From a virus, in the IMG/VR virus record IMGVR_UViG_3300045988_178965, positions 96,001 to 160,000 of that record: a stretch of 64,000 nt of DNA. One strand, written 5' to 3'. The notes under the pieces are model-generated. The model saw only the letters and a list, made by a program, of their open reading frames with translations. It was not told where the DNA came from and ran no database searches. A program made the position numbers and the translations under genes. Below, in pieces: positions 42,370 to 58,603 of this stretch (within the stretch, counting starts at the first letter, position 1; each line of letters opens with the position of its first letter).

Positions 42370-42718
42370 GAAAGGTATTATAGCAGGATTTTTCGGAGTC
42401 ATGGATGATCCTGAACCATGTGCATAAAACTTTATACACTTAATAATGGGGGGCCCCGATCCAAATACCTTATTGCCGAAAGGAGGTCAATAAGAAATAT
42501 GGTATTCGGTCTGCGGGGCGGGGAAAGGCTACAGGCGATACTGATATATCCGACAGTATATAAAAATAGTCTGATTTATCGCCTGCCACTTTGGGCATAT
42601 CGAGTAGTCAACACGAACAGAGCCACTGTTATTTAACGACTTACGATTAATGCGCCAAGTATTGTTCCTCCGGTCACTCCGACCAGAACACACTTGCCAC
42701 ACAAACTTGTTTTATTAA
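42370..42718 (-). ncRNA. structured ORF-free region (3'UTR or ncRNA)
   Basis: GC-richer than its surroundings. Long nested helices (CAGGCGATA/TATCGCCTG, CCGAATACC/GGTATTTGG, TTATTG/CAATAA) and an apical loop ACCUCCUUUCGG. Confidence 0.3.
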
Positions 42719-43102: not shown

Positions 43103-43119
43103 TGTTTAACCTTTAAAAT

Positions 43120-43584: not shown

Positions 43585-43765
43585 CTTTGGGCTCTCCATA
43601 TACAACAATATAGCTCCCACCTGAATGCTGCTCAAGAGCTACAGTCACATTGTTAAACTCATTCTTGATGTTATTTATAACAGTGATAAGTTCATCTGCA
43701 CTGTAATAAACATCTTCGGAAAGAAACTGTTCAAGGAGACCAATTTCTTTTGATTTATTAGGCAT
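43577..43765 (-). CDS. hypothetical small protein
   Basis: 62-aa ORF. Confidence 0.4.
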   Translation of the reverse strand: MPNKSKEIGLLEQFLSEDVYYSADELITVINNIKNEFNNVTVALEQHSGGSYIVVYGEPKDE

Positions 43766-43906
43766 AATAAGCCGCCTCTTATTGTTTGTAGATTTAAATC
43801 CCTACAAGATTATTTTAATTTTCTATTTAACGGAAGGCAAAAAGTGCTAATAATTTCCGTACTGATAATACAATTAAAAATAGCATAATTGCCTCCGTTA
43901 TATTAG

Positions 43907-44305
43907 TTACGAACCTTCTGCAATATCAATAATTGCAGATATTTCTTTCATGATGCGGACATAATACTTAAGCCGTCCAAGAAAGCGTTTTGTAGCTTCA
44001 CAATCAGGATAGATATTAGTAATAATATCGCTAACACTGTACAAACGAATATGATGTTCATATGCTTGATAATAATAATCAAGCAAAATCTTTTCATTGA
44101 TTCTCGTGTTTTCTTCAATATCACCTTTATGGCCGCAGATAATGCTAGGACGAATCAAGTCTTTAACCTTGATATCTTCCTTAATGCCAACTGCGCGTCT
44201 ATTTAACATTCTGATTTTATTGAATTTCATATCTCTGAGAAGCTCTTCAAATGAATGAATATGCTTAAAGAACTTCTCATTGAATGCACGATTTACAGAC
44301 TTCAT
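43907..44305 (-). CDS. hypothetical protein
   Basis: 132-aa ORF. Confidence 0.45.
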   Translation of the reverse strand: MKSVNRAFNEKFFKHIHSFEELLRDMKFNKIRMLNRRAVGIKEDIKVKDLIRPSIICGHKGDIEENTRINEKILLDYYYQAYEHHIRLYSVSDIITNIYPDCEATKRFLGRLKYYVRIMKEISAIIDIAEGS

Positions 44306-44652
44306 TACTCTGATGCCTTTAAATCAGGCAATTGTTCCAAAGCTGTAACCGCTTTTACAGCTTTCGCTTCTTTTGGTTTGGAAGCTTCAATTGCCTTATT
44401 CATGTGCTGAAACTGCATATCTTCATAGGCAGATTTTGTAATTGCACGGCACAAAACCTTTGGCTCTTTGCCAGGAACGAGGTCGTTTACACATTCTTCA
44501 TAAACGGCGCCACCTTTAGAATAGCTGAGCTGAATCCAATGGTCCGTATTCAAATAGATGCGTGATGGATCATCGATTTTGTTGCAGGCCGAGAGGCTAG
44601 AAATAGCAATAGCGGCTGCCAATACAGCGGATACTTTTTTATTTACTTGCAT
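44305..44652 (-). CDS. lipoprotein
   Basis: Signal peptide with lipobox (AISSLSAC). Confidence 0.6.
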   Translation of the reverse strand: MQVNKKVSAVLAAAIAISSLSACNKIDDPSRIYLNTDHWIQLSYSKGGAVYEECVNDLVPGKEPKVLCRAITKSAYEDMQFQHMNKAIEASKPKEAKAVKAVTALEQLPDLKASE

Positions 44653-44664
44653 AATTTACTCCAT

Positions 44665-45180
44665 TTAAAGTTGATTACGGTAATATTCTCTGACTTCCAT
44701 CAGAGCCTTACCAAGAAGATTGCGGCCACGCCAATTTCGACGGTCAAGGATTTCATTACTCATCCAATCCAATTTGACGCCCCAAATTGCATCATACGGC
44801 GAACCTTCAACCAATTCGAGGTTATTGGTCCGTAAAAGGATTTCTTTCAGTGTAGGATTTTGGAATTTGATTTTCAGAATATCAACCATAACTCCATAAC
44901 GCTTTTCGTCCCATACCTTAGGATCGAAATTTTGTACCGCCCGGCCTACCCTTTTGACTTCTGACGCTGATCTAGCCTGAACAATGAGTCTAATTTTGCT
45001 CTCATCGCCAAATGTAATAGCTTTCTCAATCATAAACGCCTGCTCAGCAGTCTTTACATTGTAGCCTTTATACACAAGTGGGCTAAAGTAAAAATTACTA
45101 AACGGTGCACCGCCGGTAAAGAACGTTACCATTTTATCAGTATAACGCATATTGTTTTTAAGTTGCACAATTTGCTCCAA
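44665..45180 (-). CDS. NADAR (YbiA/DUF1768) family protein
   Basis: FF.GG.PFSNFY......Y...EQAFM..KA......VKR.GR......W......VM...L..KF.QN..L...LL.T....LVEGSP.D..WG. Confidence 0.75.
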   Translation of the reverse strand: MEQIVQLKNNMRYTDKMVTFFTGGAPFSNFYFSPLVYKGYNVKTAEQAFMIEKAITFGDESKIRLIVQARSASEVKRVGRAVQNFDPKVWDEKRYGVMVDILKIKFQNPTLKEILLRTNNLELVEGSPYDAIWGVKLDWMSNEILDRRNWRGRNLLGKALMEVREYYRNQL

Positions 45181-45203
45181 TGTTTATTAATGAACGGCAA
45201 AGA

Positions 45204-45425
45204 CTATTGTTTCTTGTGCTTTCCTGTGATTAATAATCCTACTGCAGCAATACTGAAGATAGGGAACAATACTGGCCACATTAAACATCCTAGGAAAGCA
45301 AACAGTATAACCATAAACTTTTCAAAGGGTTCACTTCCAGATAAATCAATGTCTTTGACTCGTATCACAAAACATAGAGCCAAAAAGATTACGCAGCCAA
45401 TTAAAATGATAAACAATGGGTCCAT
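45204..45425 (-). CDS. small 2-TM membrane protein (paralog of 8258..8479)
   Basis: 73 aa with shared layout and motifs. Confidence 0.55.
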   Translation of the reverse strand: MDPLFIILIGCVIFLALCFVIRVKDIDLSGSEPFEKFMVILFAFLGCLMWPVLFPIFSIAAVGLLITGKHKKQ

Positions 45426-45475
45426 TTTGATCTCCTAAAAATTTAATATTCATTTTACCGACAATTTGCCGACAC

Positions 45476-45724
45476 TTAATCTCTTATGATTTTCTTAATT
45501 CCAAATACCAGTGGCTTAAATAAGCCATATGAAATGATCACAGTAAGTAATACCGGCCAAGCTACAGAAGCCAACATAGACAACCAGATATATTTTTCGA
45601 TCAGGTCTTCAACATCTTCGCAGCCTTCTTTATTCGCTAATCCATTTTTATAGGAAACAATAAGTATCCCAATGAAAACAACAAATAAAATAGCTACGAT
45701 CAGCAGATATATTTTTAAAGCCAT
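45476..45724 (-). CDS. small 2-TM membrane protein
   Basis: 82 aa with the same TM-loop-TM architecture. Confidence 0.5.
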   Translation of the reverse strand: MALKIYLLIVAILFVVFIGILIVSYKNGLANKEGCEDVEDLIEKYIWLSMLASVAWPVLLTVIISYGLFKPLVFGIKKIIRD

Positions 45725-45926
45725 TTTATGTACCTTATTTTAATCTCCGTTAATAATGAATGCCTGCGTTTATACTCCGCAGGCAAGAGTCAGACACATT
45801 CACAGGAGCAGGTCGTCATCCCAAGTCAGGAATAGCATTTCAGCTACTAGCCTTTGTGACTAAATCATCGGCTCCATTCAACATCTAGTGTTGAATCATA
45901 CTAGGAAGGAGCTTTTATTACTCCAT

Positions 45927-45959
45927 AAATAAACCGACACCAATATAATGGCGTCGGCT
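45927..45959 (-). promoter_or_regulatory. GTGTCGG-type hairpin + U-tract
   Basis: AGCCGACGC-loop-GTGTCGGTT followed by TATTTAT. Two G.U pairs form only in minus sense. A ~200-nt structured leader follows. Confidence 0.55.
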
Positions 45960-45971
45960 ATATTTAAGGTT

Positions 45972-46250
45972 TTAGTAAAGTGAGAATTTTTCGATCAAAT
46001 AGACCACAAACTTTCCAGTATGGATCGTTGCAATATGGCCTAAAATGACGGAAATAACAAACAATAGTACATTAAACGGCCCATTGTTTCTCAATTTGGA
46101 AAAAGCTTTGATGTTGAAAACGCTTTTATGCAAATTCGAAAGAATGAAACCGATATATACAGCCAGGAAAATAACATACAGTATGCCTGTGGGGTTATTC
46201 ACTACGGCATTGTAAATGAAATAATCCCATATATTTGTAAAAACAAACAT
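45972..46250 (-). CDS. membrane protein
   Basis: 92 aa with 3 TM helices. Confidence 0.45.
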   Translation of the reverse strand: MFVFTNIWDYFIYNAVVNNPTGILYVIFLAVYIGFILSNLHKSVFNIKAFSKLRNNGPFNVLLFVISVILGHIATIHTGKFVVYLIEKFSLY

Positions 46251-46271
46251 GATAAATCCTTATTAGTTGTC

Positions 46272-46436
46272 TTATGACCTAATTTTAGCAATTAAATCGT
46301 TGACTAAACAGAAAACAATAACCGGCAAATTCAGAATAAAGGCAATAAGAACATAAAAAATAGTACACACGATAATTACTAAAAATACCGGTATAAACGC
46401 CAATAATTGAGCAAAGCCAAGCAGGAAGTTCATCAT
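46272..46436 (-). CDS. small membrane protein
   Basis: Trimmed to the ATG at 46436, downstream of the preceding stop. Confidence 0.4.
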   Translation of the reverse strand: MMNFLLGFAQLLAFIPVFLVIIVCTIFYVLIAFILNLPVIVFCLVNDLIAKIRS

Positions 46437-46441
46437 AGGGG

Positions 46442-46900
46442 CTATTCCTTCACAATAATACCATTTCGGCAAATATTTATTTCTACGCCTTCTACAATTT
46501 TAGGTGTATAAATGCCTACATACAGTCGACCTTGGAAGTTTCGTACCCAAGATACAATATATTTCGTTTTAGGAGACATAAACGTATACCGAATATAAGG
46601 ATCACCATTATTATCCGACACTCTATCAATATGCAACGGGACTTTAAAATTCTGCTCAAGATCAGATAAGAACCAATTCAGATTGCCATAAAGAGTTTTG
46701 GCATCATAGTTCTTAGAAGCATATTCCATAATAGAATCAAAAATAGGGTTGCCGCGGAGAGATTTGATATAATCCGCATTGGACAATTCATCAATAAAAT
46801 TCTCAATAGCGGAAATATATTCTTTACCTACACCAGAGCTCCAGTCAATAGGCTTAGAATTAGGGTCGAACATGGTAGAAAACAAGTTTAAAGGAATCAT
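46442..46900 (-). CDS. hypothetical protein
   Basis: 152-aa ORF. Confidence 0.5.
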   Translation of the reverse strand: MIPLNLFSTMFDPNSKPIDWSSGVGKEYISAIENFIDELSNADYIKSLRGNPIFDSIMEYASKNYDAKTLYGNLNWFLSDLEQNFKVPLHIDRVSDNNGDPYIRYTFMSPKTKYIVSWVRNFQGRLYVGIYTPKIVEGVEINICRNGIIVKE

Positions 46901-46952
46901 TTAAAGCCTCCATAGGGCCTTATATAAAGACCCTATAACTTATTATTTGTAA

Positions 46953-47228
46953 TTACTGCAAATGAACTTCTTCGCCATCACATTCTACACACTCTTCGTC
47001 ATTACTACCAAACGAAGAGAATAATGATGTAACAGCAGGTGTAATAATCCAGATACAGCCAATAAATATTGCAAGTCCAGTAACTAAGGATGCAAATGTA
47101 GAGTTGTAGATAAAGCAAATTAAGGAAATACCTAATACTGCGCAAACCTTAAATATTGAAAGGCGCCCCTGTTGATTGTAGAACAGACGCGCCGCAATAA
47201 GATTGAAACGAGATTTCAAAAAGCCCAT
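46953..47228 (-). CDS. membrane protein
   Basis: 91 aa with 2 TM helices and an acidic Cys-containing tail. Confidence 0.45.
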   Translation of the reverse strand: MGFLKSRFNLIAARLFYNQQGRLSIFKVCAVLGISLICFIYNSTFASLVTGLAIFIGCIWIITPAVTSLFSSFGSNDEECVECDGEEVHLQ

Positions 47229-47366
47229 AATATAGCTCCAAATGTAATAACTGTAATCAATTTTAGCTATTTAAATACAAATAACAATAGCAAAAAATGA
47301 TATAAATATAAATGCCCGCGTAATAAGCCTTTAAATAATAGCACTTTACAACGGGCCTTTTAATTA

Positions 47367-47708
47367 TTAGATATATTCGTATTTAGAATACAATTTCTTG
47401 AACATATCACCAATCGGCCATTGAGCAGGATGATAGACCCATTTCTTATTTTCATACTTTTTATAGCCAATCAGTTTCTTCATAATGAACAAAGAACAGC
47501 CGAAAATAAGGCCGGTAGCAGCACCAATCACAAAACCAGACATTGTTCCCGAAACGCCACAAGCAAGGCCAATTAACAAGGAAAAACAAAGGTCTACGTA
47601 AGCTTCATAGCCTAAAACCTTATACAAAAGCTCCACATTAGTCTTGGCCAAGATAGACAATATAGCCAAAGAAGTAATAGCGGAGCCAAACAATATCATA
47701 GAAATCAT
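47367..47708 (-). CDS. membrane protein
   Basis: Trimmed to the ATG at 47708 (GGAG RBS). The annotated extension overlaps the intergenic motif. Confidence 0.45.
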   Translation of the reverse strand: MISMILFGSAITSLAILSILAKTNVELLYKVLGYEAYVDLCFSLLIGLACGVSGTMSGFVIGAATGLIFGCSLFIMKKLIGYKKYENKKWVYHPAQWPIGDMFKKLYSKYEYI

Positions 47709-47734
47709 GATAACTCCATATATAATATTTACCA

Positions 47735-47757
47735 CAAAAAACCGACACAATATCGAT
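47735..47757 (-). promoter_or_regulatory. GTGTCGG-type element
   Basis: ATCGATA-TTG-TGTCGGT followed by TTTTTG. It lies 33 nt upstream of the ATG at 47708. Confidence 0.5.
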
Positions 47758-47822
47758 TTTATAAATATTCAAAAACTAGTAGCGTAAGAGCTAAAAGAAG
47801 GGCCCGCCGGCCCCTTTACCTT

Positions 47823-48500
47823 TTATTGGCGTAAAAACCAAAAATAAAAAACTTCAAAAACAAAGATAGATGCAAAAATTAAACATCCATAAAAGCAAAT
47901 ACAAGCATAAAAAATACAACAACCAAAAAATAAACAACAAACCAAAACAAAATAGAATAAACCATAATAAACAAATACACTCCCAAATATAAAATAGAAC
48001 TTATACATCTACATAATACAAAATAGAATCATGTACAAGTATAAATACTAATACATCTGTACTTCAATACAATACAGATAAACTTAAATACGAACTGCAT
48101 TACAATGTACTCTAATATAGACTACATTATATGAGTACGGTCTACATTATTGTACAAGCAGAGACTAAATTATACTGAACTCTTCAATACGGACTGCATT
48201 ACCTATATTGGCTAAATATACATCTTAATACCTATTTATAGGTCTGTGCACCTACAGGTACATTTTGACACCTGTATAGCCTACAAATAGACTCTGTGCA
48301 CCTGGTAGTCCAGTCCATTAAAACCCTTGCAAATACTAGCCTTACGGCTATTGGTTGCATTCTTATTATTCTTAGTATACTTATATCTCTTATGTATTGT
48401 ATTAGTATTATTTATGCTTTTAATCAATACAAGGACGCGCCCGTCCTGCCTATATTAACCGTCTATTGACGTCTATATTGACTGCTTATTAGCACTTTTA
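47823..48500. repeat. ORF-free strand-asymmetric region with degenerate direct repeats (possible origin or ncRNA locus)
   Basis: The plus strand is nearly G-free from ~47823 to 48050. Repeats follow: CTTCAATAC x2, CTGCATTAC x2, CTACATTAT x2 and CTGTGCACCT x2. Confidence 0.5.
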
Positions 48501-48505
48501 CCACA

Positions 48506-48537
48506 AAATAACCGACACTTTTCAGACGTCGGTATCC
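48506..48537 (-). promoter_or_regulatory. GTGTCGG-type hairpin + U-tract
   Basis: ACCGACGT-loop-AGTGTCGGT followed by TATTTTG. Confidence 0.55.
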
Positions 48538-48946
48538 GCTAAAGGAGAAAATGATACTTTAGGAATTATTCTCATTTAGGCCTGTTTTCTGCCTAAAACA
48601 GTCCATTTTTGCTGATATACACTGTATTTCTGCAAGAATTTAGCCATTTTACTACTGATTTTACTATATCATTTATTTCTGAACGAAAAACCTGTATCTA
48701 TATAAATCAACAACTTAGATAACTTCGCTCCCTTAGCCATATAAAACAAAATTAATCACTCATTTATTCTTGAACGATATCAACAATTCAACCATTCAAA
48801 AGAATAAAATCATAAGAAAGGTACCGACACAACACGTCAACCAGTCAAAAAAGACAAAAATACTGGTGCACAAATACATGCACACCAGCATTCAATGGAC
48901 TATAGATTGATAGGGGCTCGCTTACGCTCGCCCGTATCAGACTCTA

Positions 48947-50335
48947 TTAGAACGGACCGTCTTCGTCGTCTGCTTGAGGTTTGGTTTCAGTAGGTTGGGC
49001 TTGACCACGACGTGGACGTTTGGTTTCTTTGGTTTGAGCAGGTTTCTCGCCTTCTACTTTAGCAGTATCAGAAAAGATATCTACATCACCCAAGTCCAGA
49101 CCGTCAACGTTCAGAGCGTCCAAATCAACGTCTGCGGCAACAGTAGTAGAGCCGGTTTCATTACGGTTGATGATATAACCGTCCATAGTAACGCGTGCTG
49201 TAACTACCCATGGTTGACCAGTTTCGTCGTCTTCACGTGGGGTGCGGCTTTCGAAACCGAGGACGTTATTCTCGGTGAACATGATTTCATCGGCATTGCT
49301 GCTTACGAAATCGAATGCTTCGGCGCGAGTTTGTCCACGGCCATTGTTGCCATTGCTGTACATAACTGCACGTACAGTAACGTCATTACCACGGCTGTCT
49401 TTGAAGTTAACGAACTTACGGCAATATTGAGTCGGATTGGTACCTTCTGTTACTTGAACACCAGCCAGATAGCCATCATGCAATTCGTCTTGCTCCAGGT
49501 TTGTCATTTCAGCTTGACCAGTAATAGTCAGACAGAAGTTAGGGGCAATACGGCCATATGCACGTGGGGTAGTGCGGACATCAATTTGTTTGCCGTTGCT
49601 GGTGGTTTTGTAACTTGCTGCTGCAATCGGTACAATGCAAGGGCTCAGGCCATTTGCACCAACGTAGATTACAGTAGAAGTCGCAATTGCACCTGCGTCA
49701 ACCAAGCGTTTGATTTCGGCTTTGTAACCTGCAACGATTTTGGCCATCATTTCAGACAGCTGTTGTTCGTTATAGGTTGCGCGTTCACCGTTCTTTTCAT
49801 AGGCGGTAACGATGCCTTTATCGTGGCTGACGAACGCAGAGCCGGACAGCAATGCTTCATAACCTTTGGTCAGGCTCAAAGCCTTCAACGCCAGGCCATT
49901 TGCCTTCTCATACCATTCGGAACCAAATGCTGGACCTACAGGAACAGGGAAGTTTGCCAATTTGCCATTTTGAATGCTCAAACCATTGAAGCCTGCATCC
50001 AGGAATTCCATAGCATTTGCATTGCTATTACGGACAGACGCAACGATTTGGTTAGTAGTCATACCTTCAACGTATTGCACACCGTCGTCGGCATTAGTAG
50101 CAACCCAGCAGGCACGGCCATTACTACGGCTCATTGGGGTATTTGCAATCATGTGCACCAGTTTGTACACGGAAATGCGGTAACCCAGGGCTTCATTCTC
50201 GTCTTGGCGAGCGTCCAATACATAGAATGTACGGCGAGATGCTGCCATTGGTGTTGCAACCTGACCGCTAACGCTGTGGAATTTGTTACGGCCAGTGTTC
50301 AGGGCGCCAGTGTCGATTTGATTCAGTTCGTTCAT
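48947..50335 (-). CDS. abundant-looking protein with an SSB-like acidic C-terminal tip (function uncertain)
   Basis: 462 aa. Strong codon bias, shown by a stop-free antisense frame. C-terminus ...KPQADDEDGPF resembles the SSB/gp2.5 acidic tails (DDDIPF, DGDF). Confidence 0.5.
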   Translation of the reverse strand: MNELNQIDTGALNTGRNKFHSVSGQVATPMAASRRTFYVLDARQDENEALGYRISVYKLVHMIANTPMSRSNGRACWVATNADDGVQYVEGMTTNQIVASVRNSNANAMEFLDAGFNGLSIQNGKLANFPVPVGPAFGSEWYEKANGLALKALSLTKGYEALLSGSAFVSHDKGIVTAYEKNGERATYNEQQLSEMMAKIVAGYKAEIKRLVDAGAIATSTVIYVGANGLSPCIVPIAAASYKTTSNGKQIDVRTTPRAYGRIAPNFCLTITGQAEMTNLEQDELHDGYLAGVQVTEGTNPTQYCRKFVNFKDSRGNDVTVRAVMYSNGNNGRGQTRAEAFDFVSSNADEIMFTENNVLGFESRTPREDDETGQPWVVTARVTMDGYIINRNETGSTTVAADVDLDALNVDGLDLGDVDIFSDTAKVEGEKPAQTKETKRPRRGQAQPTETKPQADDEDGPF

Positions 50336-50435
50336 GATGATTTTTCCTTTTTAGGTTGATTGAAATAAAAGATTCTTTCGGTCAAGATTCAGACCATAGA
50401 GCTGTTTTGGATTGAGGTCAGCTCTGTTACCTCAT

Positions 50436-50470
50436 AAAAATACCGACACGACAATTTCTGCCGCGCCGAT
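50436..50470 (-). promoter_or_regulatory. GTGTCGG-type hairpin + U-tract
   Basis: ATCGGCGCG-loop-CGTGTCGGT followed by ATTTTTAT. Three G.U pairs form only in minus sense. It sits directly after the stop at 50477. Confidence 0.6.
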
Positions 50471-50476
50471 ATCTTA

Positions 50477-50773
50477 TTATCTCACCTTAATATTTCGCAA
50501 ATAGGAATCTGCAAAGTTTAGTGAGCGTTCAATGTAAGCTACACTAGGATTATTTAGCGCAGTTACATTATTCAGGCTATCAGACAATATCAAGGCACCT
50601 GGATTAGACTGTTTAGCGAAAAGAATTGCTTCCAGTTCTGCCGTATTGTTATCTGATGCAAGAATAGTTTTATGACCATTTACTGCCATATTCAGTGAGC
50701 AGTAACCAATTTTCCATCGATTGCCGCCCACTAAACGAGCGTCGCAGTAAATCTTATCAGGCTGCGGCCGCAT
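50477..50773 (-). CDS. mini RNase H-like protein
   Basis: IYCDA...AELEAILFA...ILSDS gives D/E/D spacing. ATG at 50773 with a GAGGAAG RBS. Confidence 0.5.
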   Translation of the reverse strand: MRPQPDKIYCDARLVGGNRWKIGYCSLNMAVNGHKTILASDNNTAELEAILFAKQSNPGALILSDSLNNVTALNNPSVAYIERSLNFADSYLRNIKVR

Positions 50774-51734
50774 TTGCTTCCTCAATATGTTCTTTCATTG
50801 CACGCATAATTACACCTTCTTTAGACTTGCGTCCAAAGTCTTTGGTAGTTGCTGCGTCCAAGATAGACAGCATTTTACCTAAGGTATAACCGGCAATATC
50901 ACGAACTGTGCCAAGAATCTTAATTACACCGCCATAGACGTACATAACCAAACCTTTGGCCAAGTCCAATACGAACGAGCCGCCAGTTTTACAGCCAACC
51001 CAAATCTTATGGGTCCAGCCTTCTTTGTCTTCATCGTCAGTGTTCTTGACAATATCAGACAGCAGTTTGCTGAATTTTGCGGATGTTTCTTCGTCAACAC
51101 CCTCCAATCCTTCATAGAATTGGTTTGCCGCTTCATTCAACACGGCCTTTTCGGCGGTCAGTGTAGAAACACCAGTTGCGTCAGTAGTACGGTTGTATTT
51201 AACCAACGCAGTGAGGTATTCTCCCACATTCTTCAACAGCTCTGGGGTCACTTCGTCACCCTCAAATGCTAACATTTCGGACTTAATGTCCTCCACGGCG
51301 ACATTGAACTTGTCGATGTTAGCGAATTTGGCTTCTGCACCGGCGATAATTTGGGCGATTGTTTGGGTTTGGGTATTTTGAGTCATGATTTCATTTCCTT
51401 TAGCTAAAGTTTCAGATTGGGTTTCAGTTTTCACTTCGGTTTTGGACAATTCTTCTGCCCGTTTGAATACAGACAGAGTAACAGGCCCAATTTGCTCCGG
51501 ATTTTTGAGCTCGGTTCCAGAGATGGTGACCGTAACACCATTATTCTCAACAAAGCCTTTATGTGTGGCTTCACCTAAGACCGACATCCATAGAACAGCG
51601 GTCTCTGTAATTTTCTTTTCAACGGCATTTTTATGAACGCCGGTAAGTTTTTGATATTGAAGCTCCAATTTATGAAGCTCACCTTGCAATTGAAGCAGGA
51701 CTTTCTTTGCCTGCTTTTGGTTTTTGATTTCCAT
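50757..51734 (-). CDS. acidic coiled-coil protein
   Basis: Trimmed to the ATG at 51734 (GGAG RBS). The annotated 5' end lies inside the intergenic hairpin. Confidence 0.5.
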   Translation of the reverse strand: MEIKNQKQAKKVLLQLQGELHKLELQYQKLTGVHKNAVEKKITETAVLWMSVLGEATHKGFVENNGVTVTISGTELKNPEQIGPVTLSVFKRAEELSKTEVKTETQSETLAKGNEIMTQNTQTQTIAQIIAGAEAKFANIDKFNVAVEDIKSEMLAFEGDEVTPELLKNVGEYLTALVKYNRTTDATGVSTLTAEKAVLNEAANQFYEGLEGVDEETSAKFSKLLSDIVKNTDDEDKEGWTHKIWVGCKTGGSFVLDLAKGLVMYVYGGVIKILGTVRDIAGYTLGKMLSILDAATTKDFGRKSKEGVIMRAMKEHIEEANAAAA

Positions 51735-51766
51735 TTCGGACTCCAATAAAGCAACATGCCTTTCCA

Positions 51767-51800
51767 CAAAAGAACCGACACCAAAACTAATCGGTGCCGG
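51767..51800 (-). promoter_or_regulatory. GTGTCGG-type hairpin + U-tract
   Basis: GCCGGCACC-loop-GGTGTCGGT followed by TCTTTTG. It lies 40 nt upstream of the ATG at 51734. Confidence 0.6.
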
Positions 51801-51810
51801 CAACTTTTAT

Positions 51811-52107
51811 TCAGATGAGCTCAAAGTAAGGGTCATAAGTAGTACCCTTATGGACATATTTTCCATCCTCGAGCTCATATACTGTAACGTTCTGCCCCAT
51901 AGGAAGAGAAGTGTCACAAACATAGATTTTAGTAAAACCCAAAGAGCTCAAACTTTCGTCCATCTTTTTGTCAGACGAATGTTCGAACATGTCGATCCAC
52001 TCTGCTTCTAATTTGCCGACGCTGGATTTCAATACGACAGTTTTGCCGTATGCCCAGTGGCGGATTTGTTTCAGAAAACGGTTGATAGAAGGGTTCTTTT
52101 TAGCCAT
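51811..52107 (-). CDS. hypothetical protein
   Basis: ATG at 52107 preceded by GGAGATAATC. Confidence 0.5.
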   Translation of the reverse strand: MAKKNPSINRFLKQIRHWAYGKTVVLKSSVGKLEAEWIDMFEHSSDKKMDESLSSLGFTKIYVCDTSLPMGQNVTVYELEDGKYVHKGTTYDPYFELI

Positions 52108-52144
52108 GATTATCTCCATAAAAGGCTGTTAAAATGTTTACCGC

Positions 52145-52172
52145 AAAAGAACCGACACTAATTATATCGGTT
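52145..52172 (-). promoter_or_regulatory. GTGTCGG-type hairpin + U-tract
   Basis: AACCGATAT-loop-AGTGTCGGTT followed by CTTTTG. Confidence 0.6.
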
Positions 52173-52220
52173 CAGATACTAGGGTTTAAACCAAGTTACT
52201 ATTGGCCTTAATTAAAAAAC

Positions 52221-52251
52221 AAAATGACCGACACCTCCTCAGATGCCGGCC
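52221..52251 (-). promoter_or_regulatory. GTGTCGG-type hairpin + U-tract
   Basis: GGCCGGCA-loop-TGTCGGTC followed by ATTTTGTTTTTT. It is in tandem with the previous element. Confidence 0.6.
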
Positions 52252-52259
52252 ACTACAAA

Positions 52260-52625
52260 TTATTCAATACCAATCAGGTCTTTTGCGAGCTCATTCAGCT
52301 CTTTGTCAGATTCATTCATACGAACCATGAATAGACGTAAAGCTGGTGCAACTGTCAATACAAAGTTCATGATTGTATTGAACTTAGAGGTCCAAACGCG
52401 GATTGCTTTGCACGCCCAATCTTTGTTAATTTCGATTGAGACTTCAGCGCTACCATCTTCATTACCGGATTTCTCCCAATACAGGGTATCCTTGTTGATT
52501 TTGGTAGGATTTTTGCCGCTAATGCCTACCATGCTGTTGAATTCGCCCTCACGAGCAAAATACTCTGCGCCGGCTTCTTGCAAGGCTTTAACTTCTTTCT
52601 TAGCAAATTCGATTTTGATTTTCAT
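52260..52625 (-). CDS. hypothetical protein
   Basis: 121-aa ORF. Confidence 0.5.
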   Translation of the reverse strand: MKIKIEFAKKEVKALQEAGAEYFAREGEFNSMVGISGKNPTKINKDTLYWEKSGNEDGSAEVSIEINKDWACKAIRVWTSKFNTIMNFVLTVAPALRLFMVRMNESDKELNELAKDLIGIE

Positions 52626-52664
52626 ACAATTTCCTTTATATTAGTGATTGGGGTTATTCCCATA

Positions 52665-52690
52665 AAAAGACCGACACAAAAATATCGGCC
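52665..52690 (-). promoter_or_regulatory. GTGTCGG-type hairpin + U-tract
   Basis: GGCCGATAT-TTTT-GTGTCGGTC followed by TTTTTAT. Confidence 0.6.
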
Positions 52691-52697
52691 CCTTAGG

Positions 52698-53012
52698 TTA
52701 CAAAATTTCTACCTCAACATCATGAGCTAGAAACGGCATATTCTGTTTGGCAATCAAGATTGGATTTTGGCCTTCTGTCACATAAATCACATCAGACTCT
52801 GTTCGGCCATCAATTAATTCATATGTCACATAATATTGCCAGTCTTGACCAATATGGAATGTTGCAACAACTTCACCATTAGAATAGGCCTTTACCATTG
52901 CGGCCTCATCCTCTGAGAACTCTATCTCTTTCTTGATCGCATCGATGTCGAGGCTGGAAACTTCATATTCCTCGTTAAAGAGATTACTTCCAAATACCTT
53001 AATGCTATACAT
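52698..53012 (-). CDS. hypothetical protein
   Basis: 104-aa ORF. Confidence 0.5.
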   Translation of the reverse strand: MYSIKVFGSNLFNEEYEVSSLDIDAIKKEIEFSEDEAAMVKAYSNGEVVATFHIGQDWQYYVTYELIDGRTESDVIYVTEGQNPILIAKQNMPFLAHDVEVEIL

Positions 53013-53252
53013 TTTGGATTACTCCATTTATTTATATCGTTAAAATACCGACACAAAAACCGTTGATGTTATGCAACCTATATTCAATACGGAGTTTATA
53101 AATGTCCTAGCGTATTTATATGCGTGGTTGCAACATGTTGATACCCTGTTACCTGTCCAGCGGGTGAAAAAAGGTGGGCCGCCACTGTATTGTAAAAACA
53201 ACAAAGTAGGGCCCAAAGTTTTTATGGAGGTAAAAAGGATTCAAATGTTTCC

Positions 53253-53296
53253 AAAAAGAAACCGATACCAAGTGCAACAACGCTCAAGGTATCGGC
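53253..53296 (-). promoter_or_regulatory. variant hairpin (GGTATCGGTTTCTTTTT)
   Basis: Perfect 8-bp CCGATACC/GGTATCGG stem followed by TTTCTTTTT, within a 310-nt ORF-free gap. Confidence 0.5.
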
Positions 53297-53326
53297 AAAA
53301 CTTACAGGGAAATCATATATGTCATA

Positions 53327-53358
53327 AAATAACCGACATCCTTTTACAGATGCCGGCC
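53327..53358 (-). promoter_or_regulatory. GTGTCGG-type hairpin (GATGTCGGTT variant)
   Basis: GGCCGGCATC-loop-GATGTCGGTT followed by ATTTTAT, directly after the stop at 53369. Confidence 0.55.
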
Positions 53359-53368
53359 ATTGTACTGT

Positions 53369-53572
53369 TCAGATAAACGAAAACTCTTCGAATCTAGAAA
53401 ACCTCAAAGAATTATCATCTTGAATCTCAAAGATTACCATATCATCATCTTCTGAATGACTTACAATTACATCCAAGAAGTGCTTCCATATGGAAACCTC
53501 TTTATTGTTTCCTAAATCGGCCCTAAGTTCGTCAATAGAGCCGTAGGCCAATTTAAATTCGAAAGATACCAT
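53369..53572 (-). CDS. hypothetical small protein
   Basis: Trimmed to the ATG at 53572 (GGAGG RBS, TGATG overlap). Confidence 0.45.
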   Translation of the reverse strand: MVSFEFKLAYGSIDELRADLGNNKEVSIWKHFLDVIVSHSEDDDMVIFEIQDDNSLRFSRFEEFSFI

Positions 53573-53751
53573 CAAACCTCCAGCCCTTTGACTTCGATAT
53601 CGACGGCACCAACATCTTCCATACATGTGGAGATGCAAACTTGCTCATATACATCATCCCAGTCCATAGGGACTTCATACGAACGAAGGAAATCCTTACG
53701 GCTGCCATCTTCCATTGTAAATGTAACCAAAAAATCTGTATATTTTTTCAT
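53572..53751 (-). CDS. hypothetical small protein
   Basis: Trimmed to the ATG at 53751 (GGAGG RBS). Confidence 0.45.
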   Translation of the reverse strand: MKKYTDFLVTFTMEDGSRKDFLRSYEVPMDWDDVYEQVCISTCMEDVGAVDIEVKGLEV

Positions 53752-53781
53752 GATGAAACCTCCATTAAAATTATTATCAGT

Positions 53782-53810
53782 AAAAGACCGACACATTCAC
53801 GCATCGGTCC
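53782..53810 (-). promoter_or_regulatory. GTGTCGG-type hairpin + U-tract
   Basis: GACCGATGC-loop-GTGTCGGTC followed by TTTTAC. It lies 36 nt upstream of the ATG at 53751. Confidence 0.6.
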
Positions 53811-53819
53811 GAAATTCTA

Positions 53820-54116
53820 TCAGAACGGGTGATCTTCACTCGCGTTCTCTTTATGAAACTTCTCTGCATATTGAGAAGCCCACTTATTAGGATTCATGCA
53901 ACCTTTACCTGGGGTTGCAAACTCATGAACGGCGGAGCAGTAAACTGCCATACCATCCTGAGTCGGAATCCTACGGAACCAGCCGGGGATGTCCTTTTCA
54001 GGCATCTCAACGCCGACTGGCATAATGAAACTTGCGCCACGATACGCAGCGCTTGCAACATCGCCGGCACAAAGTTGTGCAAACGGTGAATCTGGGGTAA
54101 TGACGAATTGTCGCAT
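53820..54116 (-). CDS. hypothetical protein
   Basis: 98-aa ORF with a GGAGGG RBS. Confidence 0.5.
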   Translation of the reverse strand: MRQFVITPDSPFAQLCAGDVASAAYRGASFIMPVGVEMPEKDIPGWFRRIPTQDGMAVYCSAVHEFATPGKGCMNPNKWASQYAEKFHKENASEDHPF

Positions 54117-54133
54117 ACCCTACCCTCCGAGAA

Positions 54134-54182
54134 AGAAAAGAAAACGGTAGGACGAATCCTACCACCGTTGAAAGACCGACAC
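54134..54182 (-). terminator. GTGTCGGTCTTTC motif followed by a canonical strong terminator hairpin
   Basis: GGTAGGA-TTCG-TCCTACC stem (extended by AACGG/CCGTT) followed by TTTTCTTTTCTTTC, between the RNAP-like gene 2 and the next gene. Confidence 0.6.
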
Positions 54183-54272
54183 CAGAACCGCTCTACGTGA
54201 ATACAGCCCCATATCGCTACGGAGCCGTATCCAGCGAGCAGTAACCTTTGCCAGTTTTTATTGGGTACGGAG

Positions 54273-57200
54273 TTACAGCATGTCGATAGCTTCGTCCATA
54301 TCAACATCAACTTCATGATAAGACTCAGCTTCAACAGTCTCACCATTAGCCAAGGCTTCAGCCTCAGCCAATTTAACTTCCGCTACAACCTGAATTTGGG
54401 CAATCACTTCACGGCTTAAAGCTTTCAAGATGAAGCTAAATGGAGACTTGCCGTCCATATCCAAGAGGGCATTAACACCTTTGACATCATCCAGACCAAA
54501 GAAGAATGATGTGTTATAAATCTCGGATACATCCTTAGTGTACACATCAAAGTGTACATTCTTCCAGGTTGCGGTATGAGCCATGCGGACTGCATTGGTT
54601 TTATTCCAACGGTAACCTTGCTGACCGCGGCTACGTTTGTCCTCTTCGAACAGTTCTACAAATGTCTTGGCAATTTCAAACGCCATAGAATCATCCTGAA
54701 TGAACATCAGTTCGAATGCTTTTTCAAACGCCTCAGTCATGCAGTCAATGTCAGTTTCTTTATTGCGAAGGTTCAGATATTCGCAGAAACGCACCATGCC
54801 GTTTGAGTGTTTCATGTTCTCAACGACTTCTTTTTGCAACAAGATACCCATAGCATCAATAGCCAAGTTGGCCATGTCACTATAACCCAGTTTGTTGCGG
54901 ATCAGATGTGTCAGAGTAATGAGATTATTAGTCTCACTGCCCACACCTGTCTTAGCCGCAACGATTTCCTCTACCGCTGGTTGAACGTCTTCTTTTCCCC
55001 ATACCATAACGGATTTCTCACCAATCTCCTTGGTATTCAGAGAAGATAACTCATCTTCAACATAAGAGAGTTGCTGTTTGGCAGAGTTGCAGGCCAACAG
55101 CTTAGACTCGCTCCATTGCTCTTGGCCTTCATAACCTTTGGCCCAGAACAAGGTGAGGCGGTCGCCGTCAGCATCGTCCCTATTGGCCATATGAGAAAGG
55201 GCATCAACAAAGACTACTGATTCGCAGATGAAGCGATTCAGCTCCAATTCTGCTTCAGAGTCAAAAGACATCAGGGTTTTAACCTTAGCTTCATAGAGGC
55301 GGAAGTTATTTTCCATCAAGATTGGAAACTTAATAGCACCCACTTCGCCTTTCTTAGCAGCCTCTTTGTATTGGCGGTCAGCGGTAATAACCTTAAAGCC
55401 GCTTTCAAAGTGATAGCTAACTGGCAGGCTACGACCTTTTGGCAAGCTGAATTTCAAGCCCTTGTGAGAGCCGAAAGTTTCCTCGATAGCCAGCAGATGT
55501 TTGGCATGAGTTTTAACTACTCCTGCAGCTTCCCAAGTTTTAGTGCCACGGGTTTTGGCCATCAGCACAATAGAGGCAAGTGACTTGAAGAAATCACCAC
55601 CAGTAAATTGCAAACCGGAGATATGATCTCCAGTGATTGTTTCCTGTTTGTCCCAGAATGATGCACCTGGGAATACGAAACTGTGATCACCGGCAATCAC
55701 CTCGAAGCCACGAGGCATATTTAACAGACCAGGGAAACGACCACAGCCGTTGAATAAATTAACCAGGAATGTCTTCATCACTGATTGTGAAGATTCATCA
55801 CCAACAAGTGTGGTGTATTTAACTTGTTCAACTGACAATGAACCATTGCCAGCAAACATGACAGCAAATCTATCCGCCCACCATGCACGAGTCATAGCCA
55901 AGAATTCGTTAGCGGTGCAAGACCAATCTACGTTTTTGGCAGCCGCAACAGCTTTAGCTGTTTTACGACCAGTACGGCCAGAAATGAAGGACTTAAATAG
56001 TCCCTCACCATATTGACGAATCATTTGATCCGCCAAAAGAACACCGCCTTCAGCAGAATGAGATACTGCTTCTACAACACCAGCACGCTTCATCTCCAGC
56101 AAGCGAACCACTGGAGAGTAAGTAGTATCACCAGCCTTTAACTCAGACAGAAGTTCATTCATCAGTGTCATTTCAGGAGACTCAATCTCAATCCCCTCGA
56201 TCTTATCATTGATGCTTACTTCAGTACCAACGCGACGGTGGCCTTGCAAAGTGTAAAAGTCGGAGACATAAATCTCTTCTTCGATAACCGCAAAGCTGTA
56301 CACCAGACCATCTACATTTACGGTCTTAGTGTTCATTGTAATCGCAGTATTCGCTGTTTCTCGGAAGTCTGCATCATTCAACAAACGAAGCATAAATTGA
56401 CTTAAATCGCCACCCATAATTGCATGGGCGACTCCGACCATTTTGGACTTCAGCATTGGGCTGATAATATCTACACCCAAATAGTCCACCAAAGCGTCGA
56501 TGTCGCGGACATTTGTAACAACGCCTTTGGCATGGTGGAACGATACAATACGCATAGTGCCGTACTGCTGGACAAGTTCCTTGCGGCCATAACAAGCACC
56601 GCCAGCCAAATTCATAGCCAAAGGATGATCTTTGATATCAGCCAAGCTATTAACTTTCTCACCATTCTCATTGGTTACAGATAAGAGCACAGCCACCTTG
56701 CGAACACCAATGGATACTTTGGTGTCTAAATCCGGATTCAGAATGCCCCTTGCAATTGCCTTTTTGCAATCATACACCGAAATGTATTTACCAGATTCCT
56801 CTGGGTGATTGACGGCAACCATGGTATCAGCCGCCTTGCGAGAGATAAACATAGCGTCACCAACTGGCATACCTAATTTCCAGCTGGTGTCAGGACTAGT
56901 ATTCAGCAAATCGCCTTGCTGAACCTTAACACCTTTAGGAGCAGGCTTCTCGGACTTAACTACTACAACACCTCCAGGTTTGCGCTTAAGGGCGTCCACC
57001 AATTTTACGCCTTCTGTGCCAATACCGGCCAGCCAGTCGATCAAGACGTCGATGCTTTCGGTAACGGATACAATTCCGTCTTTGTAAGAAACGAAACCGT
57101 GACGTGCAACTGTTTCACGGCCAAGCGGGGAATTTACCAAAGATGTAGCCAAAGTTCCTCTCTGTGCAACTACGCGAACAGAGCCCTTTGACGGACGACG

Positions 57201-57686
57201 AATATTAATCTCAACCTTGCCCACAATAGGCAGGGATTCACCAGCCTTAATCTTGCAAATAGTACGAGCCCATTCTTTAAGGTTAGTTAATTCCTCCTGA
57301 GTGGGAGTTTTGCCGGCCTTCACCGACTCCACTCTTTGTACCATAGTTGGCACACCTTCCACTTCAAAACTATAACTCATTTCATTCTCCTTAGTTTCAT
57401 TCAAAACGATAGCCTCTACTTCTGCATTGGCCCAAGACAGGGCCTCAGAACGAGAACCCACTTCCTTGATTGCTACAACAGCCCCGTCTTTAACAACGGC
57501 CACGATTTCAGGACGCATAGCAGCGGCTTTGCTATTGCTCAGGGCAACAACCTCAATACCAGCTGCGGTACGAATACCAGCTTTGATATGAGCTTTATGC
57601 TCGTATTGTTCTACAGCAGCTTCATAAGCTTTGGCAGCAGCAGCGTTTACAGTAGTAGTGAAAGTAGAGAATTTAATAGTTGACAT
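54273..57686 (-). CDS. single-chain two-barrel RNA polymerase-like protein 2 (paralog of 38410..41850)
   Basis: Beta-like FHHAKGVV (nt 56517-56537), IKFPILM, then DDADGD (nt 55161-55178). Motif order and spacing match protein 1. ATG at 57686 with an AAAGGAAAT RBS. Confidence 0.6.
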   Translation of the reverse strand: MSTIKFSTFTTTVNAAAAKAYEAAVEQYEHKAHIKAGIRTAAGIEVVALSNSKAAAMRPEIVAVVKDGAVVAIKEVGSRSEALSWANAEVEAIVLNETKENEMSYSFEVEGVPTMVQRVESVKAGKTPTQEELTNLKEWARTICKIKAGESLPIVGKVEINIRRPSKGSVRVVAQRGTLATSLVNSPLGRETVARHGFVSYKDGIVSVTESIDVLIDWLAGIGTEGVKLVDALKRKPGGVVVVKSEKPAPKGVKVQQGDLLNTSPDTSWKLGMPVGDAMFISRKAADTMVAVNHPEESGKYISVYDCKKAIARGILNPDLDTKVSIGVRKVAVLLSVTNENGEKVNSLADIKDHPLAMNLAGGACYGRKELVQQYGTMRIVSFHHAKGVVTNVRDIDALVDYLGVDIISPMLKSKMVGVAHAIMGGDLSQFMLRLLNDADFRETANTAITMNTKTVNVDGLVYSFAVIEEEIYVSDFYTLQGHRRVGTEVSINDKIEGIEIESPEMTLMNELLSELKAGDTTYSPVVRLLEMKRAGVVEAVSHSAEGGVLLADQMIRQYGEGLFKSFISGRTGRKTAKAVAAAKNVDWSCTANEFLAMTRAWWADRFAVMFAGNGSLSVEQVKYTTLVGDESSQSVMKTFLVNLFNGCGRFPGLLNMPRGFEVIAGDHSFVFPGASFWDKQETITGDHISGLQFTGGDFFKSLASIVLMAKTRGTKTWEAAGVVKTHAKHLLAIEETFGSHKGLKFSLPKGRSLPVSYHFESGFKVITADRQYKEAAKKGEVGAIKFPILMENNFRLYEAKVKTLMSFDSEAELELNRFICESVVFVDALSHMANRDDADGDRLTLFWAKGYEGQEQWSESKLLACNSAKQQLSYVEDELSSLNTKEIGEKSVMVWGKEDVQPAVEEIVAAKTGVGSETNNLITLTHLIRNKLGYSDMANLAIDAMGILLQKEVVENMKHSNGMVRFCEYLNLRNKETDIDCMTEAFEKAFELMFIQDDSMAFEIAKTFVELFEEDKRSRGQQGYRWNKTNAVRMAHTATWKNVHFDVYTKDVSEIYNTSFFFGLDDVKGVNALLDMDGKSPFSFILKALSREVIAQIQVVAEVKLAEAEALANGETVEAESYHEVDVDMDEAIDML

Positions 57687-57717
57687 AATGATTTCCTTTT
57701 TAAAGATAGCCGTATAT

Positions 57718-57769: not shown

Positions 57770-58117
57770 TTATAGGCCTGCTAATTTTGCAGACCCATGA
57801 ATGTTTTTACCATCCACTTTATGGACGGTAACGACCAGATTATGGCCATTAGTGTGCCATGTTCTTGGTCTATTCTTCTTAGCATCGGTAGAACCTTTTG
57901 ACTTCCACCATTGCTTAGAAGTTTCTGTTTCCAGAAAGAAGATAGTCTTACTTCCTCCTGCTTCATAGCAAGAGTCAGAAGCTCTCTCGTCAGGTATATC
58001 TTCAGAAAGATACACACCTTTTCCCTGAGCGTTTTGTTTGCCAGGGAATAGGACGATTTCTTCGCCCTCTTTGACATTAAATATAGACGAAGAACAATGA
58101 CAAAGGAGGCGTTTCAT
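57770..58117 (-). CDS. hypothetical protein
   Basis: Trimmed to the ATG at 58117 (AAGGAGAG RBS). Confidence 0.45.
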   Translation of the reverse strand: MKRLLCHCSSSIFNVKEGEEIVLFPGKQNAQGKGVYLSEDIPDERASDSCYEAGGSKTIFFLETETSKQWWKSKGSTDAKKNRPRTWHTNGHNLVVTVHKVDGKNIHGSAKLAGL

Positions 58118-58119
58118 GC

Positions 58120-58287
58120 TTACTCTCCTTCGTATTGAGTAAGGATACGACACTCTTTCTCAGAGTGTTTTGTTGTAACCTTACAGTGTTGATAATCGCT
58201 TCTTCTCATTGCATTGCTAATACCACCGAAAGCGGCATTAATGGAGATAATAGCGACGATAGCAATCAGGACATAACGGATTTTCAT
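58120..58287 (-). CDS. small secreted Cys-containing protein (55 aa, below the ORF-track cutoff)
   Basis: MKIRYVLIAIVAIISINA signal-like N-terminus. GGAAATCATT precedes the ATG. Confidence 0.4.
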   Translation of the reverse strand: MKIRYVLIAIVAIISINAAFGGISNAMRRSDYQHCKVTTKHSEKECRILTQYEGE

Positions 58288-58438
58288 AATGATTTCCTTT
58301 CAGAAGAAATAAATAATAAACAAAATAATGAGACAGAATTATCTCATTTATAATAACACTCTGTATTGAATGCCATTATAGATAAGATAAAAGGATGTGC
58401 AGGACTGATATCCCACACGCCCTTAAACATTATTATTA

Positions 58439-58603
58439 TCAGAGATCACACTCTCCTTTTTGTTGCTTACAGTATCTGTCTACCGATGTGATAGATGTTT
58501 TCTTTACCACATTCTCAGCGGCGTCTTTGGCACCACTGAACATGAAAGAATAAAAAGAAAAGCAGAAGAATACAGCCGTGATTGCAATGATAAAGTTTTT
58601 CAT
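58439..58603 (-). CDS. small secreted/membrane Cys-containing protein (54 aa, below the ORF-track cutoff)
   Basis: MKNFIIAITAVFFCFSFYSF... with a C-terminal DRYCKQQKGECDL, similar in layout to 58120..58287. Confidence 0.35.
   Translation of the reverse strand: MKNFIIAITAVFFCFSFYSFMFSGAKDAAENVVKKTSITSVDRYCKQQKGECDL

Follow-up and report, generated by a model that had tools for sequence, protein, structure and literature searches.

A probable divergent relative of the single-chain two-barrel RNA polymerases, encoded next to a GTGTCGR-marked gene block in a large uncultured phage

We describe a protein, here called RNAP2, that is encoded on the minus strand at 54273..57686 of a 64,000-nucleotide stretch of viral DNA (the window, positions 96,001 to 160,000 of IMG/VR record IMGVR_UViG_3300045988_178965) and that is very probably a homolog of the two-barrel RNA polymerases (RNAPs). 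The phage, which is uncultured and ~185 kb in size, also carries RNAP1 (38410..41850, minus strand; 1146 amino acids (aa)), a better-conserved single-chain two-barrel RNA polymerase of which RNAP2 (1137 aa) appears to be a distant paralog. The RNAP2 gene is defined by its open reading frame (ORF) and translation, its homologs, its ratio of nonsynonymous to synonymous substitution rates (dN/dS) and its profile alignment to RNAP1 with hhalign. On balance we favor the explanation that RNAP2 is an active, early-made single-chain two-barrel polymerase that would serve an adjoining block of genes marked by a repeated intergenic element, GTGTCGR (R, G or A). We infer that RNAP2 is catalytic, that it carries out DNA-dependent RNA synthesis, that it acts at a stage of its own and that the element is its promoter and not a terminator or processing site.

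The initial annotation had pointed to three short motifs in RNAP2. All of them were located, with FHHAKGVV starting at residue 383, IKFPILM at 785 and DDADGD at 837 of the 1137-aa protein, and their RNAP1 counterparts are SHTGLKGV (411), LRSPFLW (788) and HSDIDGD (845). The distance from IKFPILM to DDADGD, put at about 55 aa, measures 52 aa, and the spacing between the beta-like and beta-prime-like motifs, put at 430–450 aa, is 451 aa in RNAP2 and 431 aa in RNAP1 when counted from the lysine to the first aspartate. Three additional motifs are collinear in the two proteins (LKSK 412 with IKAK 446, AKTGVGSETNN 911 with AKKAVGPGTNN 929, and MKH 958 with IKH 1002), giving six in total at near-identical positions. 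Across all six frames of the window the pattern D.DGD is found only in the two RNAP ORFs, one time each.

To follow these positions through the RNAP2 family, we used an alignment (A2) of the target with four close and five distant relatives, the latter at 19–30% identity; the corresponding RNAP1 alignment (A3) holds 13 sequences with identities down to 26%. The beta-type barrel motif, G-x2-R379-x2-S382-x4-K387-G-V ... VDI ... K413-S-K, spans residues 376–424 (56415..56561, minus strand). Within it R379, S382, K387, K413 and G418 are invariant in A2, and the region pairs with R408, S411, K416 and K447 of RNAP1. The spacing R379-x7-K387 is the same as that of R408-x7-K416 in RNAP1 and of K1065-x7-K1073 in Escherichia coli beta, so that RNAP2 has a beta-type barrel signature with two conserved basic residues in which R379-x7-K387-G-V is invariant. 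A beta'-type entry motif, G-A-I-K786-F-P788-I-L-M, follows at residues 783–791 (55314..55340, minus strand) and is comparable to N-R-A-P-T-L-H of beta'; K786 and P788 are invariant in A2, as are R789 and P791 in A3. This K-F-P lies ahead of DxDGD much as R-A-P lies ahead of NADFDGD in E. coli beta'. The putative metal-binding motif itself, N-R-D-D838-A-D840-G-D842 (55161..55184, minus strand), is also comparable to NADFDGD, and D838, D840, G841 and D842 are unchanged in all 10 members of A2, including those at 19–30% identity; RNAP2 thus carries the DxDxD aspartate triad of a beta'-type barrel. Finally, two long predicted helices at residues 898–959 (54810..54995, minus strand), with AK912-x3-G916-x2-TNN and Q951...MK959H, are bridge-helix-like and common to RNAP1. 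The invariant set of A2 (R379, S382, K387, K413, K786, P788, D838, D840, G841, D842, K912, G916, Q951 and K959) comprises the catalytic or active-site and bridge positions expected of such an enzyme. RNAP2 combines both motif sets in a single chain of 1137 aa and does not divide them between beta and beta' polypeptides as the multisubunit enzymes of jumbo phages (phiKZ, AR9) do.

Outside the motifs RNAP2 had been described as strongly diverged, and indeed the best BLASTP E-value between RNAP2 and RNAP1 is 1.2. BLASTP and tblastn were likewise blank for full-length similarity between RNAP2 and the family formed by RNAP1 and gp152–gp154 of Acinetobacter phage vB_AbaM_ME3 (ME3). Comparison of the two family profiles gave a different result. 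With hhalign, A2 and A3 aligned at 95.7% probability and E 9.7e-9 over target residues 821–1014 and RNAP1 residues 830–1066, and a greedier alignment was collinear over 239–1090 and 303–1118, pairing RIVSFHHAKGV with RITSHTGLKGV and LKSK with IKAK. Tested by region, the beta-like segment scored E 2e-5, the DxDGD segment E 6e-4 and the C-terminal helices E ~5e-8 (4.6e-8), as against E 0.04–0.5 for off-diagonal pairs of regions. Reversed or block-shuffled versions of A3 reached E 0.025–0.11 in a run in which the real pair scored 8e-7. Because the regions score independently and the controls do not, we conclude from the profile comparison that RNAP2 and RNAP1 are homologous, though very distantly. 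The divergent paralogy proposed in the initial annotation is thereby supported, and the pairwise check that it called for, blank at the level of BLASTP, finds its answer in the profile alignment and the six collinear motifs. Since only profile–profile similarity links the two proteins, RNAP2 is best treated as a separate family and not as a member of the RNAP1 family.

The first protein had been read as a two-barrel RNAP, and its predicted structure agrees. An AlphaFold (AF2) model of RNAP1, with a predicted local distance difference test score (pLDDT) of 70.7 and a predicted template modeling score (pTM) of 0.67, was compared with the PDB using Foldseek and matched almost exclusively largest and second-largest RNAP subunits (beta, beta') of bacterial, archaeal and eukaryotic origin, with E down to 4e-4 and probability 1.00. 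PDB matches also included the crAss-like polymerase 6VR4 (E 0.057; query TM-score, TMq, 0.24) and QDE-1, and among viral models (BFVD) they included ME3 gp152 and gp154, crAss-like RNAP fragments, poxvirus and pithovirus RNAPs and A7XX94 of phage P23-45. The model therefore indicates that RNAP1 has the two-barrel RNA polymerase fold.

Several results weigh against assigning this fold to RNAP2. Its own model is poor (pLDDT 53.9, pTM 0.43) and has no significant Foldseek match in the PDB; the blank is explained by the quality of the model, and the fold of RNAP2 is therefore derived through RNAP1 and not directly. When the RNAP2 family profile was compared with single E. coli rpoB and rpoC domains, it matched in the right places only weakly (E 0.015 and 0.002, the latter for the metal-motif region against rpoC 441–469), and other pairings gave 0.035–0.8. 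Searches of Pfam, PHROGs and PDB sequences, with single sequences and with profiles, returned nothing relevant for RNAP2, RNAP1 or their family members. On the other hand, the order of secondary-structure elements around the beta' motifs is alike in the two models, with helices at 898–933 and 937–959 in RNAP2 and at 919–955 and 980–1004 in RNAP1. That RNAP2 is not a DNA-dependent RNAP at all, its motifs being coincidental or convergent or belonging to an RNA-dependent RNA polymerase of the QDE-1 type, a primase or a PolD-like DNA polymerase, seems quite improbable to us. Such a reading would account for the lack of a structural or sequence match between RNAP2 and solved polymerases, and QDE-1-type enzymes, which have the same motifs, are represented among the RNAP1 matches. 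However, the homology to RNAP1 lies well above the controls, the residues that never vary coincide exactly with the catalytic ones, and the phage single-chain two-barrel enzymes that have been characterized (YonO, phi14:2 gp66, and gp64 and gp96 of P23-45) are DNA-dependent RNAPs. As for a right-hand polymerase domain of the T7/N4 type, none was detected by Pfam in the target or in any of 10 family members, even at E-values as high as 1.

RNAP2 belongs to a small family that appears to be under strong constraint. An exhaustive HMMER search of 1.84 billion representative proteins yielded nine family matches in all. The close homologs, 81 at 71–100% identity, are all unnamed proteins, of which those with a database name are labeled 'MAG TPA: hypothetical protein [Bacteriophage sp.]' (the target itself being DAD57748.1), and many of them sit on contigs of ~170–188 kb. 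A set of 50,697 phage records gave no tblastn match to RNAP2 or to P0086 and P0089, two of its distant relatives; megablast of the 46–64 kb segment was likewise blank, and a scan of GTDB genomes found no RNAP2 relative and hence no clue to the host. Against relatives at 79–88% identity, dN/dS is 0.056–0.071, with dS saturated; such low values denote strong purifying selection, and the RNAP2 gene is therefore functional.

In IMG/VR, RNAP2 relatives fall into three lineages: A, with 78–88% identity to the target and an RNAP1 of 80–99% identity on the same contigs; B, with 34–35% for RNAP2 and 49–50% for RNAP1; and C, with 27–29% and 45–46%, respectively. Every long IMG/VR contig that carries an RNAP2 relative, in all three lineages, also carries an RNAP1 relative. 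This strict co-occurrence would be expected if the two proteins were subunits of a heterodimer, an option raised in the initial annotation, or if RNAP2 were an inactive regulatory paralog. We nevertheless disfavor the heterodimer, and consider both variants highly improbable, because each chain holds both motif sets, with catalytic residues invariant in both families, and because the two proteins differ in rate: between lineages RNAP2 retains 27–35% identity as against 45–50% for RNAP1, so that RNAP2 evolves much faster. Furthermore, ME3 and ME3-like contigs of ~200–240 kb have RNAP1 with no detectable RNAP2, and RNAP1 can therefore exist without RNAP2.

The RNAP1 gene is interrupted in some relatives, where cluster members of 214 aa and 935–964 aa (P0113–P0121) take the place of the 1146-aa protein. 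In ME3 it is split into gp152 and gp154 with an endonuclease gene, gp153, between them, and in lineage B loci the RNAP1 match spans 4.1–4.5 kb compared with 3.4 kb (the interrupted relatives include L001 and L046–L048). Such interruptions resemble mobile insertions, whether an intron, an intein or a homing endonuclease.

The reading frame of RNAP2 is open from 54273 to 57728 on the minus strand, or 1151 codons. The ATG at 57686 is preceded by AAAGGAAAtcatt, in which a Shine-Dalgarno-like AAAGGAA (57693..57699, minus strand) lies 7 nt 5' of the start codon, and the GAAAGGAAATCATTATG context is also found 5' of a small upstream gene that starts at 58286. Because this ribosome-binding context recurs at the upstream gene, we take 57686 to be the likelier start, in keeping with the 1137-aa product that had been proposed at 54273–57686. 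Counted from a 580-bp non-coding divergent junction (~58.65–59.23 kb), RNAP2 is gene number four; between the two lie three small genes (57771..58602, minus strand; 114, 55 and 53 aa), of which the two smallest encode hydrophobic N-termini. The neighbors of RNAP2 are small ORFs without annotation, and RNAP2 is not fused to a structural protein. The junction (58650–59230) contains G/T-rich repeats (GGTGTGTGAA, GATGTGAGTGTAA and GGGGG runs) and GC-rich hairpins, is free of GTGTCGG, and may be a regulatory region or an origin.

The gene lies directly upstream of a region in which one element recurs. GTGTCGG is present 18 times in the window where 2.1 copies would be expected, every time on the coding (minus) strand. 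Sixteen of these copies, associated with hairpins and T-runs, fall in a block at 41894..54182 (minus strand) between RNAP2 and RNAP1: ten are in 48.5–54.2 kb, bearing out the claim that the element is densest in the GC-rich part of the window, and six in 41.9–47.7 kb, which leaves only two for the remaining 38 kb. The first copy (54176–54182) is found 91 nt past the RNAP2 stop codon and the last (41894–41900) 44 nt before the RNAP1 ATG, and there is none between the divergent junction and RNAP2.

A similar arrangement is seen in the relatives. In three lineages, the element (GTGTCGG or GTGTCGA) sets in 70–180 nt past the RNAP2 stop and largely ends before or at the RNAP1 gene. On the coding strand, the flanks retrieved downstream of RNAP2 hold 6–15 copies (10–13 in most) and the 10 kb upstream 0–2, and around RNAP1 there are 1–12 copies upstream and 0–2 downstream. 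At loci with RNAP1 only, the element is absent from ME3 and two ME3-like loci, and a third such locus (L054) has a single copy. No GTGTCG element follows the RNAP2 homolog on the contig of P0089 (L005), the most distant RNAP2 relative at 19% identity, and that homolog may use a different signal.

Most of the intergenic regions examined in the ~12-kb block contain the element, which has the layout CCGGCAC-loop-GTGTCGGT-yTTTTnTGG, a hairpin followed by a T-run. The consensus is GTGTCGGTnyTTTTnTGG in lineage A, ends in TGA in lineage B and is GTGTCGAyTnTTTTTTGA in lineage C. GTGTCGR forms the 3' arm of the hairpin and faces a 5' arm that reads CCGGCAC, with TCGGCAC in its place in lineage C. A G at position 7 is paired with C (or T), and an A is paired with T in 29 of 29 stems; the G-to-A change of lineage C, with T in the 5' arm, is thus a compensatory change. 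Under a strict test, some 50% of the unique copies have no stem of at least 6 bp and nevertheless keep GTGTCGR, the T-run and TG(A/G), and recognition therefore seems to be sequence-specific. Tandem doubling within one intergenic region is frequent (52152–52234 and 48512–48830 in the window; 3968/4062 and 4473/4552 in L003). In such a pair, one copy may end a transcript and the next start one.

We suggest the following sequence of events, which is a tentative proposal insofar as the element is taken to be the cognate signal of RNAP2. RNAP2 would be an active single-polypeptide polymerase and an ancient, fast-evolving paralog of RNAP1, in which one double-psi beta-barrel would provide the two basic residues and the other the DxDGD metal site, and the two enzymes would work separately, at different stages. 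Because its gene is the fourth after the junction and lies in an element-free leader, RNAP2 would be made first, by the host polymerase or another enzyme. It would then act on the ~12-kb element block, which starts 91 nt past its own stop codon and ends with the RNAP1 gene, and RNAP1 would in turn serve the remaining genes. The fit between this temporal division of labor and the gene order, the co-occurrence and the distribution of the element is circumstantial. Going further, it is possible, although we regard it as doubtful, that RNAP2 is the founding member of a hitherto undescribed family of single-chain two-barrel enzymes that need no sigma factor, that it recognizes GTGTCGR unaided as a hairpin-forming promoter, that enzyme and specificity evolve together (as in the G-to-A change of one lineage and its compensating stem change), and that an RNAP2-to-RNAP1 cascade operates in large uncultured phages. 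Judging by their IMG/VR sample identifiers, these phages may come from human-associated samples.

Some observations speak against these proposals. A simple scan found no sigma70-type promoter upstream of RNAP2 on the minus strand. The element resembles an intrinsic terminator in having a hairpin and a T-run, and a generic terminator scan catches several copies. Element copies also cluster at two distances, 20–30 nt past stop codons and 32–47 nt before start codons, and spacing therefore does not separate a promoter from a terminator. Accordingly, RNAP2 could be a polymerase while GTGTCGR marks terminators, insulators or hairpins for RNA processing or stability, its adjacency to RNAP2 being an operon boundary. 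For this somewhat unlikely reading one can cite, besides the hairpin and T-run, the yield of the scan (27 terminators compared with 11 expected in 47–60 kb, element copies included), the many copies that begin 20–30 nt past a stop codon, and the stem covariation, which suits a hairpin of whatever function, in RNA or in DNA. In addition, terminators of the P23-45 virion RNAP carry a conserved 26-nt motif (bioRxiv 10.1101/2022.12.01.518664). Terminator function fits less well with the roughly half of unique copies that keep their sequence while lacking a stem of at least 6 bp, with the serial arrangement of 6–15 copies on the coding strand, or with the cluster at a fixed 32–47 nt before start codons. 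Moreover, the identity of the arm is kept across lineages in which RNAP2 is only 27–35% identical, which is not the behavior of ordinary terminators.

A different order of events would follow if RNAP2 were packaged in the virion, as in N4, the crAss-like phages and P23-45 gp96. The injected enzyme would transcribe the element block earliest, from hairpin promoters, and its own gene would be late. N4 virion RNAP uses hairpin promoters, and GTGTCGR, a hairpin with a conserved arm sequence, resembles them. A sigma70-like promoter was not found ahead of the element block, RNAP2 adjoins the divergent junction, and in one relative (L002) the opposite-strand neighbors include a lysozyme gene, a late function. 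Furthermore, of the two two-barrel RNAPs of P23-45 one is a virion enzyme and the other is not (bioRxiv 10.1101/2022.12.01.518664). We consider this order unlikely in view of the position of RNAP2, which shares a strand with a block of small early-type genes and is directly upstream of it, is not among recognizable structural genes, has no virion-protein fusion and is half the size of crAss gp66.

The block that contains RNAP2 differs from its surroundings in composition, as had been noted by eye. GC content is 0.441 in 48900..57700 compared with 0.354 in 1–47 kb, and GC at third codon positions (GC3) is 0.38–0.49 for genes in the block and 0.20–0.35 elsewhere, so that the GC-richer block reported at ~48.9–57.7 kb is borne out by windowed GC and GC3. 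A foreign origin of the block was considered and rejected: in each of the three lineages the GC content of the RNAP2 gene exceeds that of its flanks by 3–7 points, and the raised GC is therefore a conserved property and not a sign of recent acquisition. A 462-aa ORF in the block (48947–50335, minus strand) is mirrored by an antisense 461-aa ORF (48974–50359, plus strand), probably as an artefact of a composition that is rich in GC and poor in stops. Neither the 462-aa protein nor a 348-aa protein of the block (50757–51803) has a Pfam match.

Other features of the window were recorded. A high-scoring match over the full length of HOLDH RNA (Rfam RF02997; 374.6 bits, gathering threshold 319.4, E 3.6e-101) is located at 63168–63532 (plus strand) in the rightward gene block. 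Twelve tRNA genes, called by ARAGORN in agreement with Rfam, surround a Ro60/TROVE-vWA gene (19743–21338) at 13481–21819 (minus strand), and Rfam gives two tRNA-like matches of 121 nt immediately downstream of that gene (19137–19257 and 19416–19536), which are too long for tRNAs and could be Y RNAs of the YrlA type. A trimeric autotransporter adhesin of the YadA type, with head, stalk and membrane-anchor domains, is encoded at 33719–35512 (minus strand) and is kept at the same position downstream of RNAP1 in a relative (L008, 18023–19816); it suggests a host with an outer membrane. An NAD-salvage cluster at 25508–29174 (minus strand) consists of NAMPT-like, PRPP-synthetase-like and AAA ATPase genes, and one ME3-like locus (L006) has NAMPT and NMNAT-Nudix genes near its RNAP1 homolog.

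Single-chain relatives of the cellular RNAPs are known from few phages and have been used to study the minimal two-barrel enzyme and promoter recognition without sigma factors. RNAP2 adds a very divergent family that current domain libraries miss. With it come a candidate for the DNA signal that it recognizes and a naturally occurring variant in specificity (GTGTCGG versus GTGTCGA), so that promoter recognition can be tested directly by means of synthetic genes. It would be the second case, after P23-45, of one phage with two deeply diverged single-chain two-barrel polymerases, here as a free-standing paralog pair. For the group of ~170–190-kb uncultured phages, it provides the first functional annotation of one gene and probably of two.

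Among known systems, the closest in sequence is the family of RNAP1 and ME3 gp152 plus gp154. RNAP1 matches ME3 at 26% identity by tblastn and E 2e-31 by structure, and RNAP2 shares with this family the ~1140-aa single chain, the six collinear motifs and a profile E of ~1e-8; it differs in having no pairwise BLAST similarity to it, in evolving faster and in being tied to GTGTCGR, which is nearly absent from ME3-like loci. The polymerases of T7 and N4 offer analogies of function only. T7 gene 1 is directly followed by the first T7 promoters, just as RNAP2 is encoded directly 5' of its putative cognate signals, and the N4 signals form hairpins, as GTGTCGR does. These enzymes are, however, right-hand single-subunit polymerases, and Pfam detects no such domain in RNAP2.

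The single-chain two-barrel enzymes characterized from phages are nearer in kind. YonO of the Bacillus prophage SPbeta is a polymerase made of a single ~100-kDa peptide; it is distantly homologous to multisubunit RNAPs and is not known to have a sigma-like partner (PMC5467207). YonO-like proteins never turned up in the homolog searches with RNAP2 and RNAP1, in which no direct comparison with YonO was made. Gp66 of the crAss-like phage phi14:2 is a DNA-dependent single-chain two-barrel RNAP (bioRxiv 10.1101/2020.03.07.982082). Its structure (PDB 6VR4) is matched by RNAP1 and was not matched by the poor model of RNAP2, and unlike RNAP2 it has ~2180 aa and is packaged in the virion. The nearest precedent for the proposed cascade is the Thermus phage P23-45, which encodes two very divergent single-chain two-barrel RNAPs that act in sequence, each with its own DNA motif (bioRxiv 10.1101/2022.12.01.518664), namely the non-virion gp64 and the virion enzyme gp96, which is fused to the tape measure. 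The phage studied here resembles it in carrying two deeply diverged single-chain RNAPs and differs in that neither is fused to a tail protein, both have ~1140 aa and are encoded on the same strand 12 kb apart, and there is no similarity to the P23-45 enzymes at the sequence level. In the literature searched, neither the RNAP2 family nor an ME3 RNA polymerase was described. As a kind of enzyme, the single-chain two-barrel RNAPs of phages are already known from YonO, crAss gp66 and P23-45, and the RNAP2 family is an unannotated and very divergent addition to them.

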